A stretch of DNA of 64,000 bases from Rhizodiscina lignyota (Eukaryota): contig ML978122.1 of the NCBI GenBank assembly GCA_010015805.1, positions 3,134,453-3,198,452 on the forward strand, in the 5' to 3' direction. The position numbers were made by a program, and so were the translations under genes. This document shows positions 54,861 through 63,723 of the stretch, piece by piece. Each line of letters opens with the position of its first letter. Within the stretch, counting starts at the first letter, position 1. The notes under the pieces were generated by a model that saw only the letters and a list, made by a program, of their open reading frames with translations, made no database searches and was not told where the DNA came from.

Positions 54861-57782
54861 ATGGCTGGAAAGGAAGAAGAGGAGAAGCCCACCGCTGTCG
54901 ACAAGGGCAAGGGCAAGGCAACAGACGCAGTGGAGAAGAAAGAAGAGAGCAAGGACGCAAAGGAAAATGGCGTACTTCCTCCAGGTAGGCCGACACGCGC
55001 GCTCAGTGTTACACCGATGAAAAGTGCTAACCTGGCGGTCTTATGACAGAGGAGCTCAGTGAAGAAGATCAGAAGCTCAAAGATGAGCTTGACATGCTTG
55101 TCGAGCGGTTAGGCGTATGTAAACGGCTCCACTCTTCCCCAGCGCATGCTCATATTGCCACAGGAATCAGACTCGAGTCTCTACAAACCAGCGTTGGACG
55201 CTATCAAAGATTCGATCAAGACATCCACATCGTCGATGACAGCAGTTCCGAAGCCGTTAAAGTTCCTCAGACCACATTATGAGAAGCTGGAGCAGATCTA
55301 CGAGTCGTGGCCACAGGGCGACGACAAGGTATGTTTGCGTCGGACTTGGACGAAACGTAGCAGGCCTTGTGGCTAATGCAATGATCTATTCGCAGGCATC
55401 GTTGGCAGACACGCTCTCTGTGCTTGGCATGACATATTCCGAAGACCGAAGAGATACCCTCAAGTACCGCCTCCTCTCACCCTCGAAAGACCTTGGATCA
55501 TGGGGACACGAATACATGAGACATCTGGCGCTGGAGATAGGCGAGGAGTACCAAGATCGGCTAAACGACGATAAGCCAACAGACGAACTCACCGACCTCG
55601 TCCTCGCTCTCGTACCTTTCTTCCTCAAGCACAACGCCGAAGCAGATGCGGTGGATATTCTGAGCGAATTGGAGATGATAGAGCAGATCACAAAATACTT
55701 GGACGAGAATACCTATGCTCGAGTATGCTTGTATATGGTTAGCATGGTACCTCTTCTCACGTACCCTGACAACGACAAATTTCTCCGAACCGCGTACGGT
55801 ATCTACCGACAGTACAAGCAATATACACAGGCGATAGTGCTTGCGATTCGATTAAACGACAAGGAGCTGATTGAGGAGACCTTCGGCGCTACGGACGACA
55901 AGTCAATCAAGAAGCAGATGGCGTTCCTCATTGCTCGGCAGAGGATATGGATAGATCTTCCAGAGGCGGATGCGGGTGACACGGAGCTAGAAGAGTGTCT
56001 CAACAACACAAAATTGCCCGATCACTTCAAGGCTTTGGCGAAGGAGCTCAACATTCTCGATCCGAAGACCCCCGATGACATCTACAAGACCCACCTTGAG
56101 AGCTCCCGGACCGCTGGCTTGACTAACACGGACTCTGCCCGTCACAACCTTGCAAGTGCTTTCGTCAACGCCTTCGTTAACGCTGGCTTCGGCAACGACA
56201 AGATGATGCTTGTGCAAGAGAACAAGAGCAGCTGGGTCTGGAAGACAAAGGACGAGGGCATGATGTCAACGGCGGCATCTCTCGGTATGCTGTTGCAGTG
56301 GGATGTTGAGATGGGTCTGGATAAGATCGATCCTTTCACATATGTCCAGGAAGACTACGTCAAGGCTGGCGCTATCTTGGCGAACGGTATCATGAATTCT
56401 GGAGTGCGTGTGGACTCGGATCCCGTACTGGCCTTGCTCGGAGATGAGGGCAACTTGCTGAACAAGAATGAATCAATTCGAACGGCGTCGGTCATGGGTC
56501 TCGGCCTAGCTTATGCTGGTTCGAATAAAGAAGATCTCTTGGAACTCCTTCTGCCTATGGTCACGGACACTAGTCTACCAATGCAGCTCTCGGCCATGGC
56601 TGCTCTGTCGCTAGGTCTCGTCTTCGTTGGTTCGGCGCAGAGTGAGGTCAGCGAAGCGATCATTCAGACATTCCTGGATGAGGACCGAACCAATCAGCTT
56701 AAGGACAAGTGGACGCGGTTCATGGCTCTCGGCCTAGCGCTTCTGTTCTTTGGACAGCAGGAAGAGGTAGACGTCATCCTCGAGACGCTCAAAGCGATCG
56801 ACCACCCGATGTCGAAGCCGACGTCTGTTCTTGCGGAGGTGTGTGCGTGGGCGGGAACCGGTGCGGTCTTGAAGCTGCAGCAGCTCCTTCATATCTGCAA
56901 CGAACATATTGAGGAAGACAACGAAGAGAAGAAGGGTGACGAGTTACTTCAGGCGTACGCTGTGATCGGTCTCGCGCTCGTTGCCATGGGTGAGGATGTC
57001 GGCCAGGAGATGGTCCTCCGCCAATTCGGCCATCTAATGCACTACGGTGAGGCCAATATCCGCAAAGCCGTTCCTCTCGCCATGGGTCTTATCAGCCCGA
57101 GCAATCCTCAGATGAAGGTCTACGACACGCTGTCGCGATACAGCCACGACAATGACAACGACGTAGCCGTTAATGCCATCTTCGCCATGGGCTTGCTTGG
57201 TGCGGGTACGAATAATGCACGTCTGGCGCAGCTTCTGAGGCAGCTGGCGAGCTACTACCACCGTGATCCGAATGCACTATTCATGGTTCGCATTGCTCAG
57301 GGCCTCCTGCACATGGGCAAAGGCACTCTGTCCGTTAACCCGTTCCACACCGACCGTCAAGTCCTGTCTCGTGTCGCTGCTGCTGGACTTCTCACCGTCC
57401 TTATCTCTCTCCTCGATGCTAAGCAGTTCGTGCTTGGTGAATCGCATTACCTACTCTATTTCCTCGTCACGGCCATGAACCCACGCTTCCTCATTACTCT
57501 CGATGAGGAACTCAAGCCGCTTACGGTGAACGTACGTGTCGGTCAAGCAGTTGACGTAGTAGGCCAGGCTGGTCGACCGAAGACTATTACTGGCTGGCAG
57601 ACACAGAGCACCCCGGTGCTGTTGGCTTATGGTGAGCGAGCGGAGTTGGAAGATGAGCAGTACATCTCGCTGAGCAGTACCTTGGAGGGTATTGTGATCT
57701 TGCGAAAGGTAAGAGTCCTCTCCACACCTCAACAAAGATAGTCTTACTAACTAGACAACAGAACCCGGAGTGGCAAGATTGA
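54861..57782 (+). CDS. RPN1: 26S proteasome regulatory subunit Rpn1
   Basis: [53 protein letters not shown]. Four introns; last exon NPEWQD*. Confidence 0.96.
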
Positions 57783-58184: not shown

Positions 58185-60772
58185 TCATTTCGTTCCCGGT
58201 CGAAAAGCCGAAGCTATTGAGATGTACTTCGCTGAGCCAGGAAGTATTTGGCCGCCATATTCTGCGCTTACTTGGATGTGTCGGTCATTAATCTGGACAG
58301 TGATTCCGAGGGCAATGACGTAGTGAGGCCGGCTGTGAGCGTTATCTTCAGGATATTCTATGGGAAATTCGTTTCTGAGGTCCGACACGTCCACTTCGAT
58401 GGTACCAATTGCCTGGCATCCTGAAATACTGTTAACCCATCAATTTCAGATTTGTGGACGTCGAGGTACTCTTGCCTTTGTTCTTTGCATGGTACCGCGG
58501 CCAGTGATCCTCAACAGGCTGGTCAGAAACGAAAAATAATTCTGTAATTATGAGTGACTCCGACTCGTCCAGTGCGATTTTATGTATAGACCAGAATTCT
58601 TTTTCATGTCGTACTTCCATTTCTTTGATCTTATCCTGTTCGATAAATCAGCACGCCAGCTCCACTCAGGCCCTTGCTTGTCATGATCTTGCCTTATTGA
58701 ATATCCATTCAATACAGTTCCGAACGTACCATAGCCCATCCACTCGACACCGCGTGACATTCTTACCGCGTCGCCATTTATGGCCTGCATACTCCTTGTC
58801 ATAACTTTCATGCCGTAAGATGCCGTAGCTCAGTCGTAGCTTTCTTTTGGGTCCTTTCTCCTTGTTGAAGGCGCGCATCACGCCTCCGCGAGCTACAGCG
58901 ACGGCGGACTGATCTCTGAGAACCTGTTAGAATAATGTCGCCAGATGGTTTGGGCAAACTGACGGCTTTGCCTTATGAAGTTTGATAGGCGTGTGCCAAA
59001 GGCTTGGCGATACCGTTTTCAGAAACTTGTCCAACTTGTTCACTAACGCTGGACATCCACCGAAGCCTCCGATTAAGACAACGTACTGAAAGAAGAGATG
59101 TGAGCATTCGAAATGTCTTCCATCGACGAATCAGTTACATACGTCAACAACAATATGCTCAGACTCCAAGCAACGCTTGAGCTGAGACGCCAATACGGCC
59201 CTTACTCCTGCTAATGTCTCCTCAAACATCTTTTTGTACTCACATCTGTGAACGTTAGCAAACATACGTACACGGGAATGTGGCAACTTCCTTCGTAATT
59301 TTCAGCCAACCAGCCGTGGAACCCCTTGCCTTGTTCTCCTTTAAGCCATCGATCTGAAACCATTGTAGAGCGTCCCGGAAATTATCAAAATCCATTCGCC
59401 TCTTGACTACGGTCTCAAATGCTCCCATGACACCCTCACTCATAATGACATCGTGCAACGTACGCCGTATCCTGCCGTCGAGCTGGGGACTGAAGTCCTC
59501 AGGATGTTCGAAGTCATCGGGATGCAGTGTCGAGGAGAGGAAATTATAAAAGGCTTCGTTGAGGAATGTCGAACGACATAGTTTTCCTGTAGCGAATGAG
59601 CAAGTGTCTATGGCAGTGAGCTGTATTAACTTGACCGTCTGGCTCGACAGCCTCCCGCTCTAGTCTTAGCGGATCAGTTGCGCCGACTACAAGAGTAATT
59701 GCATCGACTGTGCCACCGCCAGCATCCAGAAGAATGAATGTGTTACGACGCTATCGATGTTAGGGTTTGAAACGCCGATAAACTCAGTTTGCGCTGGATA
59801 CTGTACCGAGATCCTTGGGATATCGTACAAAACGAACTCTGCCGCAGCCTCCTGTTCCGACACCATGAAGATATCAGCAGCTCGAATCAGGCGAGCTTTG
59901 TCCATGGCTTCCATAAGTGCGGCTTCCATGACCATGCATGCCTTGGGAGACCATATCGCAGGTACGGTAAAGACCATCTCGCTTGCTTCATCATCTTGTA
60001 GGCCGCAATGGATTTCGAGCTGGCATTTCCCATGTTGGAGGAAGAGAGTCAGGAAGTCAACTATGACATCTCGGTATCGTTCGATGATCCTCCGCCCTGA
60101 CCCACTTTCATCCAGTAGCATCATTCTAAGATTTCTGAGGTCTTTGCGTTGCTTACGACGAATGTCCTCTGTCACCTTGCTTTCATCAAGCATCAGCTTC
60201 ATAAAACAGACCGGGGTATTCCTTATCCGAGACTCCGCTGTTACATTTCGCAGATGTGGCCAACGTTGGCACTCGAATCCCCATCGTGCACAATCTGGCA
60301 AAGGGCGAGGACTGTCTTCATCATTGCTGCCGTCTTGGCCATCTAGAGTTGGAGACCTGGGGGTTATGGAATCGGTTCTGGGAGGGCTACCTTCTTCATT
60401 TTGGGAGTTGTTGGGATGGCCGCCGGCGGGCGTCTTGATCACATGGTTTTGAAAAATGTCGAAGGTTTCGATATCGGACTCCTCGTCGTCAGACTCCACA
60501 TCAATAGCCATAAACGACATGGAAGCTTCCGGATTCGGATACGAAACTTCAGTGGGCACCTGATCGCTAGGCATTCCTCTTTCATGACGTGGAAGTTGAT
60601 CGTCTGGAAACTCTCGAATGGATTCGATCAGATCTGGATCAGGGTCTTCTCGGCCATTCCGGCGAACGTAAGCTGCTCCACTTTGGGTCGTCGCAAAGTC
60701 GATGCTCAAGATGATACTGCCAGATTCCGTGCTTCTTGATTTGCCTTTCCCTTCTTGACGAGAAGGCGCCAT
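58185..60772 (-). CDS. Atypical Hsp70-like (HSPA12-type, actin-like ATPase fold) protein, possibly degenerating
   Basis: IDFATT, QVPTEVSY, FTVPAIW, VSEQEAAA, LLDAGGGTVD, GKLCRSTFLN, VLIGGFG, AVARGGVMRA, SYGI, ending SIASAFRPGTK*. About seven introns, some non-canonical. Confidence 0.82.
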
Positions 60773-61577
60773 TTTTTAGAGGTTCTGAGGAGATATATAA
60801 CAGTCAAAGGATTGAGTAGATTAAAGACGCTAGGGATGCCGATGAAGTGTGCAATTGAAAAGGTACGAGCAATGTGAGATGTACGCAGAGCGAAAGAAGA
60901 GAATGATGTGCGGTAAGATAAAGCTATCGAGGCGGACATGCAGCCCCTAAAGTCGAACAGGCGTTGAAGGCGGCGACTTTGATCGATCGGAAAAGGTAGT
61001 GTTTTGCTAAACCGTGACTCGTCGATATATCGCTGCTACCTAGCATGCACCTTTTCATCTACGCGAGTGGCGCGTCTCAGAACTTGCATGAAGAGCACCT
61101 ATCCGTTCGTATAGCCCTATTGTTACACAACACACAAAGCGATCAGTAGATGCACTAACTGTCACCGGTCAGCTTTATTCAGTTGTCACGATTGGAGGTT
61201 GATCCACCCGCGATACACGCTGAAATACCCATAATCAATTTGTAAATACACTGAGTGGCTTCTGAATGGGGCGTCGGGATTGAAAGACTAAAGTACAGGG
61301 CTGTCCGTGCTTTAGAGGATCCGTGAGGCGTGTGAGCGTCGCGTGCCGCGCGCCGCGTTAACAGCCCAGCTCTTGTGACCAGTCACAATTGTTCAGTTTC
61401 CGCGATGGGATGGTAATTGCCTCCTGCAATATGCGGAGTATGCTGAAAGTAATTCCGATCAATTTGTTATTCCGTTGAGTAGCTTCTGAGCGGGTCCACC
61501 TGTGATGTTCTTAGGTGCCCGTGTTTCTGCCTTGTGCTGCTTTGTTGCCTTCAATTTTTACCTAGCTCTAAACAAAA

Positions 61578-63723
61578 ATGAGAAAAGAAAAATTCTTCTG
61601 GACTAACGAAGAAACGTTGGAGCTCTGGGCATTACTTGACCATTTTCGAGATGAAGGTGCGAAAAGTAACAAAGAGAAGATGAGTGCAATAGCAGCAATT
61701 CTGAAGCACAAGTACAACAGAGAATACACGTCAACGGTCGTCGGTAACAAGCTCACCTGGGAATGGAAGAAAATTAACGGAAATGCTGCAAAACGCTCAA
61801 AATTATTCGACCGAGGATCAGCCTTGCTCTCCAGCGATGTTCTATTTGGGGAAGAAAATGAAGTGAAAGCAATTGAAAGGGCGAGGAAAAGATTGCAAGA
61901 TGAGGGCTTTCTCGAAGTGCGGCCTCAGAAGCGACGTGCAACTATGGTTGCGACCCAAAGGCTCATTGCACCAAGCCCCTGTGTAAGGGAAAGTCGGAAA
62001 TCGAATGACTCGAGTATCGATGTAGCGGGTAGGATGTTTGTTCACCAAACGACCACCACAACGTCACCAATCCGGGAAACCGAGGATGAAGCTTCTGTAA
62101 GACTATATTGCGCCTATTCCTTGAAAGGTATGAATACAGTACTTACTTCTTGAGCGTAGAGGAGTAGTAGCGATAGGTTAACCACAAATTCGACGATACA
62201 GCACCTCGACACGCCCAGTAAAGCTGCCAGCTTTACCCTCCCTGCGATCACCGTACCTGATGAGGCTATCATTTGCTCTCGCTCTTTGGAGTGTCTCAAT
62301 CAAATGCCACATGGTACGGACAGGGCCCGATTGCAGACTTTCCCGGTGCAGAACAGTTCGACTACGGACTATGGGCCTTCGAGCCAGAATTTGGCGCAAT
62401 CCATCACTGAGAAGGATAAAGAGCTTGCCAGGCTCAGTGCAATTATCGAGAGTCAACAGCAGACGATTCGGAGGCAGCAAATGCTTCTCGAACGCAGTTT
62501 CGAAACTTGTGACTCCAGATACGGCAAACTCTCTCATGGGAAACGCGATGAAATGAACATGTGTCGCGAATTGGACAGAAAAATTGTTCAGTTGATTAAC
62601 GAACAAGAGCTGGAAAGGAAGAAGTGGCAAAGGGAATCTGAAAGCTGGAGCTATGCGGTGCTCCACGGATCCAAAGAAGATGAAGTCTTCAAGTTGCGAG
62701 AAGAGCTCGCGAACCTGGAAGAAAAGCAGATGGAATACCGGCAGCTGTTCAGCTTTGTGCGTAATGACAGAACGATGGCCGAGAGCTCGAAGCTAAGCGA
62801 TATCCACGAAAAGATGGATTATCTCGTTAGGGATGTGATGATTCTTTCGAATGCATTTGATGGGTCCACCTTTCGAAGTCGGACGCCGCCGCCGCCAAAT
62901 TCAGATGCGGAGCAGCTAATTCGACGGGTACTGACCGGCGTTCCAAGATCACTATCACCAGAATCCTTTTCCGTATCCACCGAATCGCTCATGAACACGG
63001 TTGATAGTGTGAAAGGCAGCGGTCTCGCGGCCGCTGTCGTCAGCGTGGCTTTCCAGGAATGGATATTTGAGGCTGATTGGCCTAACTTCGACCCAGAAAA
63101 GAACGAGCTCCTTGACATATATAGAGATCAGCAACGCCAGCAAGCAGGTAAGTTGCTTATCATACATGCTTTGATAGCGTACCACTGACTAGCTTTACAT
63201 AGATGGGCTTCACCTGCTGAGGGGTCGAGATTGTGCAGCACATCGGACCTTGGTCGAAAGGCCTGGCTTCACCAAGCATCAACTTCCTTCCAAAGCGGAA
63301 GAGCTTGCAAACCGGATCAAAGAAGCTTTATCAACCATCTTTCTCTGGGTAGAAGACGAAGAGAGGCTTCGAGAACTAAAGAGGCTGATTGAGGACGCTC
63401 TGAATCTGAAAGTGTTGGTGCTCACTGGAAACATAACTTACTCTTTGTTGACAGTGAAGCCTGGTACACCATTCAACCCCAGAGTCATGCACATTGACCA
63501 TGATGGCAGTGCATCAGCAGAACTGGCCCAAAATTCCGCCGCGGTCGTGAAATTTTGTCGCTTCCCCGCCCTCTTCGTGCGCAAATCGGCGGCTCCTGCA
63601 GACGTGGAAGAGGGCCATGATATGTCCCGAGGCCTCGTTAGCCTACAAACATTCGGGCCAATCGGCTTGGACGACGTGCGCAACCATGACTGTCTGCTGA
63701 AGGCGAAGGTTCTTCTGGGTTAG
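61578..63723 (+). CDS. Uncharacterised protein (about 675 aa): Myb/SANT-like N-terminus, coiled coil, GrpE-like C-terminal beta region
   Basis: Three exons (61578-62096, 62160-63147, 63203-63723) splice in frame through gtaaga...tag and gtaagt...tag introns. Confidence 0.8.

Follow-up and report, generated by a model that had tools for sequence, protein, structure and literature searches.

We examined a pair of divergently transcribed genes in a 64,000-nucleotide stretch of DNA from Rhizodiscina lignyota (GenBank assembly GCA_010015805.1, contig ML978122.1, positions 3,134,453 to 3,198,452 of the forward strand), which we refer to as the window. Gene A encodes an ATPase that is clearly a divergent, HSPA12-class member of the Hsp70 superfamily, and gene B encodes a member of an ascomycete family without a Pfam entry. 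A preliminary description of this DNA had placed the two genes head to head with about 800 bp between them, and their start codons are indeed 805 bp apart. The linkage of A and B is the strongest result of our analysis: the pair recurs in other fungal lineages, in the same orientation and with unrelated flanking genes. In addition, predicted models of the C-terminal domain of gene B resemble the beta head of GrpE. We consider the chances about even that the pair represents a conserved divergent two-gene module of filamentous ascomycetes, consisting of an HSPA12-class ATPase and a dedicated GrpE-type partner.

Linkage of genes A and B in other lineages

The preliminary description had made recurrent head-to-head linkage a test of its proposal, and the pair proved to be adjacent in every other lineage with readable neighbours. 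For annotated genomes we relied on the principle that GenBank protein accessions run consecutively along a contig; the window pair, KAF2103570.1 and KAF2103571.1, served as a control. Zopfia rhizophila likewise has consecutive accessions for its B homologue (P0023, KAF2178398.1) and its A homologue (P0064, KAF2178399.1), both recorded on an 807,800-bp contig. Among the matches listed, Xylogone has a single A-family protein, the distant member P0125, and its contig is not the one that carries the B homologue of that fungus (P0008).

For metagenomes, Joint Genome Institute (JGI) contigs were scanned with a five-sequence profile (A5) of the C-terminal part of B, which yielded 13 loci. Those with usable flanks belong to three lineages (L001-L003, L004-L007 and L011-L013), and two further groups (L008 and L009-L010) lie on short contigs. 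Seven loci (L002, L003, L005, L006 and L011-L013) have 4.6 kb or more of DNA upstream. All seven carry a full-length B gene, N-terminal domain included, and all seven have an ATPase gene about 450-470 bp upstream of B on the opposite strand. The remaining six of the 13 are too short to judge for a partner. The best tblastn matches of the seven ATPases are proteins of the subfamily of P0002, the gene A product (P0062, P0182 and P0061, with up to 63% identity). Linkage of the gene to an Hsp70 partner, one of the features by which a GrpE-type protein can be recognized, is thus found in the window, in Zopfia and at seven of seven metagenome loci with readable flanks.

When the lineages were compared by tblastx with each other and with the window, similarity was confined to the A-B pair; the flanks were unrelated and no flanking gene was shared. 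In the parts aligned by BLAST, identity between the window proteins and their counterparts in the other lineages is 28-34% for A and 22-33% for B, and window B gave no alignment with lineage III B at the BLAST threshold used. The low identity, the shared pair and the unrelated flanks together show that the two genes have retained their orientation and spacing over a deep evolutionary separation, during which their surroundings changed.

The adjacency might in principle have no functional meaning and reflect inherited synteny of related fungi or an annotation artefact. The sample of about five lineages leaves some room for this, as the first two of the metagenomic ones, lineages I and II, share 78% identity at the DNA level, so that only about five independent cases of linkage can be counted. 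Nevertheless, among the window and the other lineages the A proteins are no more than 28-36% and the B proteins 22-33% identical and yet the genes keep the same orientation and spacing, no flanking gene is common to the lineages, and none of the seven loci with readable flanks lacks the partner. We therefore regard a meaningless adjacency as highly improbable.

The ATPase and the gene B family

The product of gene A, P0002 (NA57DRAFT_72548), contains all of the ATPase motifs that had been quoted from it (SIDFATT, TVPAIW, SEQEAAAE, DAGGGTVD, GGFGG and AVARGG), and, as had also been noted, it has no canonical Hsp70 lid and no EEVD, its C-terminus being ...IASAFRPGTK. These motifs are not chance matches: when P0002 is aligned with 12 relatives, the columns in which they lie are invariant or nearly so (D25, F26, T28, T29, E306, E308, D331, G333-G335, T336 and D338); the SE.EAAA motif is also found in such columns.

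P0002 itself had no match in Pfam at E ≤ 10 and none among PDB sequences, Hsp70 chains included, at E ≤ 1. Of 8000 candidates scored in a search of a 5.8-billion-protein collection, 139 reached E ≤ 1e-3, and 120 of these were listed. The ten closest among those listed (P0061-P0070; E 5e-72 to 1e-42, 30-35% identity) form a divergent subfamily together with P0002, and in eight of the ten there is no Pfam domain among the precomputed ones. PF00012 (HSP70) is carried by many of the more distant relatives, often together with PF27033 (DUF8340), and several of them have been named Hsp70-like or 'Heat shock 70 kDa protein 12A'. In the protein Atlas, P0002 had a feature score of 0.97 to ascomycete clusters with PF00012 in 18-36% of their members, and a structural template modelling (TM) score of 0.68 to a 'Heat shock 70 kDa protein 12A' cluster; one structural row assigns the aligned part to PF00012 and states that it 'meets the bar'. 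Gene A therefore combines the two features expected of the HSPA12 class, namely the nucleotide-binding motifs of the Hsp70/actin fold and the absence of a canonical lid and EEVD. A profile of the gene A subfamily (A3) had no match at E ≤ 1e-15 in 401 Pseudomonadota genomes, which says little about bacterial pairings because it concerns one phylum and a profile of a fungal subfamily.

P0001 (NA57DRAFT_72549), the product of gene B, contains every string previously quoted from it (FWTNEETLELW, ITEKDKELARL...LREELANLEEK, PGTPFNPRVM, VKFCRFPALF and LLKAKVLLG) and had no significant match in Pfam. A phmmer search of 1.84 billion representatives returned 59 proteins at E ≤ 1e-3, eight of them at E ≤ 1e-10. 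Twenty relatives were looked up by name, and the 16 that carried a species name come from Rhizodiscina, Zopfia and Tothia (Dothideomycetes), several Aspergillus, Penicilliopsis and Coccidioides (Eurotiomycetes), Botryotinia, Rutstroemia and Xylogone (Leotiomycetes), and Fusarium, Hypoxylon and Parathielavia (Sordariomycetes). Gene B is thus a member of a Pfam-less ascomycete family found in four ascomycete classes, for which the pairing with gene A provides a first functional handle.

All members of a 26-sequence alignment (A4) have the same architecture: a basic tail, a W-led N-terminal domain (about 80 residues), a variable stretch of low complexity, a coiled coil, a conserved block of helices (consensus ...AA..WVF...FP.F....LL..YR...DG...LR.LD.AAH) and a C-terminal block (consensus AL.LK..L......Y.....PGT.FDP..M...[variable]...V.LC..PA...[variable]...KA.V.L) in which M598 is invariant. 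Judged by these alignments, the C-terminal domain is the most conserved part of the protein. A simple home-made heptad score marked residues 249-278, 343-378 and 532-561 as heptad-rich, and weak matches to coiled-coil families of Pfam were seen in the gene B protein and its relatives.

Of the 58 relatives scanned, 12 match only the helical block (approximately residues 345-556) and bear C2H2 zinc fingers elsewhere; the helical region that recurs in them covers residues of about 460-552. The block is therefore separable from the rest of B, being found in putative transcription factors as well. In these 12 proteins (P0010, P0017, P0018, P0024, P0025, P0030-P0032, P0034, P0052, P0053 and P0057) the zinc fingers lie downstream, where gene B has its C-terminal beta domain.

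Apparently 'stand-alone' B-family proteins of 170-220 residues (P0004-P0007, P0013, P0015 and similar ones) were rejected as last-exon fragments of full-length metagenome genes. P0015 is 99.5% identical to L002:6222-6872, and the same gene extends upstream to 4685, which identifies the short proteins as gene-calling fragments. Atlas clusters of 150-190-residue 'hypothetical proteins' may be the same artefact. R. lignyota itself has two more full-length B paralogues, P0003 (KAF2103518.1), on the 3.32-Mb scaffold of the window about 50 gene accessions from the pair, and P0011 (KAF2103967.1), on another scaffold.

Most B homologues have a KRKR-type basic stretch ahead of the conserved W, which would fit a nuclear gene B protein. 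The N-terminus had earlier been read as Myb/SANT-like. The W-led domain is indeed conserved, and PF04504 (GeBP-like_DBD, a Myb/SANT-like family) is the only Pfam family matched by more than one of 17 N-terminal sequences (two of the 17, best E 0.012). However, all PF04504 matches are sub-threshold, window gene B scoring 15.5 bits against a cut-off of 29.5, and a search of PDB sequences with a profile of the N-terminal domain found no Myb or SANT chain. A Myb/SANT identity is thus weakly hinted at by sequence comparison.

The same observations could be taken to mean that B is a DNA-binding regulator of the divergent ATPase gene, with a Myb/SANT-like N-terminal domain and a nuclear basic tail, and that the two genes form a regulator-target pair whose products make no complex. 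The PF04504 matches, the basic start of most homologues and the recurrence of the helical region in proteins with zinc fingers are consistent with such a role. We nonetheless think it distinctly unlikely: the matches stay under the cut-off, the PDB search is silent on Myb and SANT, and a regulator would not account for the C-terminal domain, where conservation is highest and M598 is invariant.

The C-terminal domain of gene B and a possible role as exchange factor

GrpE proteins are built from a coiled coil, followed by helices and then by a beta head (structure 1DKG). The preliminary description had staked its idea of a GrpE-like cofactor on a GrpE-like fold at the C-terminus of gene B, and the predicted model shows that resemblance. 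An AlphaFold2 (AF2) model of residues 504-675, made from a 16-sequence alignment, has a predicted local distance difference test (pLDDT) value of 80 and consists of three helices (2-18, 20-42 and 52-74 of the exon-3 model) and then a beta domain, so that the compact C-terminal beta-sheet domain of the GrpE topology is present in the prediction. The beta domain modelled by itself has a pLDDT of 79. When this domain was compared with 48,161 PDB representatives by VIA, the top four were all GrpE (GrpEL1 and the GrpE proteins of T. thermophilus, E. coli and G. kaustophilus), and in the VIA lists obtained with the helices included, GrpE chains were the only rows that spanned the beta part. A Foldseek search of 350,542 PDB chains with the model of helices plus beta domain likewise had GrpE in all of its six best rows (3a6m, 1dkg and 4ani; E 0.4-2.1), with GrpEL1 at ranks 10-11.

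We also compared the B family by hhalign with 30 GrpE proteins collected from Pseudomonadota genomes. The B-family segment ...TVKPGTPFNPRVMH (LNLKVLVLTGN-ITYSLLTVKP-GTPFNPRVMH) aligned with residues 123-155 of E. coli GrpE, which comprise the last helix, the first strand and the FDPN motif. The score of 24.3 (P 0.015) was reached by none of 35 column-shuffled GrpE alignments (maximum 22.0), and the reversed alignment scored 10.7. With a B profile of 54 sequences the register was unchanged and the score was 20.1 (P 0.026), above all 60 shuffles (maximum 16.7).

Several results weigh against a GrpE-type partner of the ATPase, in addition to the small number of independent linkage cases. The Foldseek search with helices plus beta domain had no match at E ≤ 0.001, and the one with the beta-domain model was not significant, with a best E of 3.8 and GrpE at ranks 3, 4 and 6 of 9 (E 7-9). 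The hhalign probability is only 2-3%, at a P of about 0.02. Neither P0001 nor any of the 16 C-terminal sequences matched the Pfam GrpE family (PF01025) at E ≤ 10, and the B family thus falls outside GrpE as Pfam defines it (PF01025 above cut-off); a profile of the gene B tail found only designed helical proteins among PDB sequences, at E of at least 0.7. On the side of the ATPase, the phosphate-1 loop of P0002 reads DFATT against DFGTT in the family, with A replacing a conserved G. Triple heat-shock elements are absent from the five intergenic regions scanned (the window and related loci), and there is no sign that the pair is under heat-shock regulation. Finally, when gene B residues 470-675 were compared with the Atlas, the nearest named clusters were GIL1_IRKI_C (feature score 0.82) and MIEAP (0.80), not GrpE. 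On balance, a GrpE-type beta head is the best reading of the gene B tail and in our view fairly probable, on the basis of predicted models from a shallow alignment and of weak sequence statistics.

The Atlas result raises the alternative that B is a scaffold of the MIEAP or GIL1/IRKI type, whose C-terminal domain binds lipid or other partners or drives assemblies. B would then be co-regulated with the ATPase, or be its client or adaptor, and would not serve as a nucleotide-exchange factor. The structural scores of the gene B tail are consistent with this, the TM values being 0.51-0.52 for clusters of DUF641/GIL1 proteins and 0.62 for a cluster of basidiomycete G-domain proteins, and so is the layout of Mieap, which PMC10845071 describes as a coiled coil with disordered regions and a structured C-terminal half. 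However, by the tool's own note, Atlas feature scores below 0.9 are leads only. PF16026 (MIEAP) and PF24994 (GIL1/IRKI) had no match at E ≤ 10 in P0001 and the 16 C-terminal sequences, nor in 58 relatives at E ≤ 0.01, and a scaffold would leave the constant Hsp70-type ATPase partner unexplained. We rate this alternative as possible but rather unlikely. It would moreover be compatible with a GrpE fold, because the MIEAP and GIL1 families might themselves be GrpE-like.

The basidiomycete cluster mentioned above comprises 'G domain-containing proteins', with PF01926 (MMR_HSR1) in 73% of its members, and its match to the gene B tail extends over 168 residues; this model-based likeness suggests that another phylum has the tail domain joined to a GTPase.

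If gene B does have a GrpE-type head, the pair might work as follows. Gene A would contribute a nucleotide-binding domain of the Hsp70/actin fold, interrupted by a long acidic insert, together with a beta-rich domain at the C-terminus, and has no lid and no EEVD. Gene B would be its dedicated partner, made up of the basic tail, the W-led N-terminal domain, a disordered linker, the coiled coil, the helical region and the GrpE-type beta domain. We infer that B would dimerise via its coiled coil, that its head would dock on the nucleotide-binding domain of gene A, and that docking would promote ADP release or otherwise gate the ATPase cycle. The N-terminal domain may target the complex to a particular site or client, perhaps within the nucleus. 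Of the earlier proposal that B is a GrpE-like cofactor of its neighbour, the conserved linkage and the GrpE-like predicted fold have held; the functions suggested along with it (stress, nonself recognition or cell death) found no support. A conserved linked partner with a predicted GrpE-like head is a concrete, testable cofactor candidate for the HSPA12-type family.

A wider possibility is that the C-terminal domains of the fungal B family, of animal MIEAP and of plant GIL1/IRKI belong to one superfamily of GrpE-derived heads serving HSPA12-class ATPases across eukaryotes. We regard this as unlikely. The MIEAP-like cluster of the Atlas is commonest in Mollusca, and a massive expansion of HSPA12 in bivalves is described in a review (PMC13580251); the two together hint toward such a shared superfamily. 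If it were real, dedicated exchange factors would have existed for HSPA12 proteins from the start, and an Hsp70-like ATPase would mediate the action of Mieap and GIL1. An extension of the GrpE-like fold to MIEAP and GIL1/IRKI would accordingly change how these animal and plant proteins are understood.

Locus features and comparison with known systems

The coordinates of the two genes and of their parts are collected in Table 1. Splice sites of gene B were derived by hand from the sequence; both introns are GT...AG, and the hand-spliced product is exactly the deposited P0001. For gene A, the translation of exon 1 is 100% identical to the deposited P0002. In sequencing run X1 (genomic DNA, probably the source of the assembly), the stretch is identical and lies on one 167-kb contig with no joints.

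Table 1. Positions of genes A and B and of their features in the window
Feature	Position	Strand	Description
Gene A	58185-60772	-	HSPA12-class Hsp70-superfamily ATPase; P0002, 720 residues, 9 exons in the deposited model; start ATG 60772-60770, stop 58185-58187, stop codon included
Gene A phosphate-1 loop ILSIDFATTQSG	60677-60712	-	From sequence; D25, F26, T28 and T29 nearly invariant in alignment A3
Gene A phosphate-2 motif DAGGGTVD	59703-59726	-	From sequence; D331, G333-G335, T336 and D338 invariant in alignment A3
Intergenic region	60773-61577	.	805 bp, divergent
Gene B	61578-63723	+	P0001, 675 residues, 3 exons; ATG at 61578, stop 63721-63723
Gene B exon 1	61578-62096	+	Residues 1-173
Gene B intron 1	62097-62159	+	GTAAGA...TAG
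Gene B exon 2	62160-63147	+	Residues 174-502 and first base of codon 503
Gene B intron 2	63148-63202	+	GTAAGT...TAG
Gene B exon 3	63203-63723	+	Residues 503-675 and stop codon
Gene B N-terminal W-led helical domain	61578-61832	+	17-sequence alignment A6; W8 nearly invariant, G80 invariant
Gene B coiled-coil region	62385-62774	+	Heptad-rich residues 249-278 and 343-378
Gene B conserved helical region	63003-63420	+	Residues 455-575, across intron 2, ahead of the beta domain; conserved block in A4
Gene B C-terminal GrpE-like beta domain (predicted)	63427-63720	+	Residues 578-675; PGTPFNPRVM, VKFCRFPALF, LLKAKVLL; AF2 model, pLDDT 79

The intergenic region is presumed to be a bidirectional promoter. 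In the five intergenic regions scanned, counts of stress response elements (STRE) and CCAAT boxes were near expectation, with the exception of CCAAT in L012: this lineage III region (L012:7847-8302) has five CCAAT boxes against 0.8 expected from shuffles, and the other lineages have one or two. The neighbouring gene upstream in the window (55261-57741, plus strand) encodes the 26S proteasome subunit RPN1 (RPN1_RPN2_N, E 7e-92, with RPN1_C and PC_rep); it is not common to the related loci.

The deposited model of P0002 is probably spliced wrongly in exons 6-8 (window 58430-58930, minus strand). An open frame at 58681-58926 aligns with nine of nine homologues beyond the splice point of the model, through ...DGLWYVRNCIEWIFNK, and another at 58432-58647 aligns with seven of nine from about HEKEFW on, of which the model takes only ELFFVSDQ.... 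The model also adds a 14-residue micro-exon (58593-58634). Homology-guided splicing of these exons would require a GC-AG intron.

Bacterial operons link grpE to dnaK, and gene B is similarly linked to the gene of an Hsp70-superfamily ATPase. Like GrpE with DnaK, and Mge1/GrpEL1 with mitochondrial Hsp70, gene B has a coiled coil followed by helices and a predicted small C-terminal beta domain, and its F-D/N-P motif lies in the same register as that of GrpE. Unlike GrpE, it has no PF01025 match, is three times longer, and has in addition an N-terminal domain and a disordered stretch; its beta domain also contains a low-pLDDT insert of about 40 residues. Its partner ATPase belongs to the HSPA12 class and is not a canonical Hsp70, and exchange activity is putative.

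Gene A, for its part, resembles HSPA12A, HSPA12B and the fungal proteins with PF00012 and PF27033 in its nucleotide-binding motifs, in lacking a lid and EEVD, and in the TM value given above. It differs from them in that P0002 and eight of its ten closest relatives are too divergent for a precomputed Pfam match, and in that its subfamily is tied to a B gene.

The MIEAP (PF16026) and GIL1/IRKI (PF24994, DUF641) proteins share with gene B a coiled coil and a structured C-terminal domain and form its nearest named Atlas clusters. They differ in coming from animals and plants, and no Pfam match connects them with the B family. We know of no reported link of either family to Hsp70. By term search, the Mieap paper (PMC10845071) mentions neither GrpE nor Hsp70, and in a 2025 review of GrpE-like factors (PMC12987570) HSPA12, MIEAP, GIL1 and fungi do not appear. 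Searches of open-access PMC and bioRxiv found nothing relevant that joins MIEAP, GIL1 or DUF641 with GrpE, no functional link between HSPA12 and Mieap, and no HSPA12 protein with a GrpE-type partner. The function of HspA12 is itself described as unknown and mechanistically untested in a 2026 review (PMC13580251).

A possible bacterial parallel to the layout of gene B is offered by All4144 of Anabaena, which according to a preprint (bioRxiv 10.1101/2025.04.14.648684) is a GrpE with a helix-turn-helix domain that works with DnaK. Such a combination of a GrpE-type factor with a DNA-binding domain would match the putative Myb-like N-terminal domain of gene B, although All4144, as described there, is unlike gene B in being a true bacterial GrpE.

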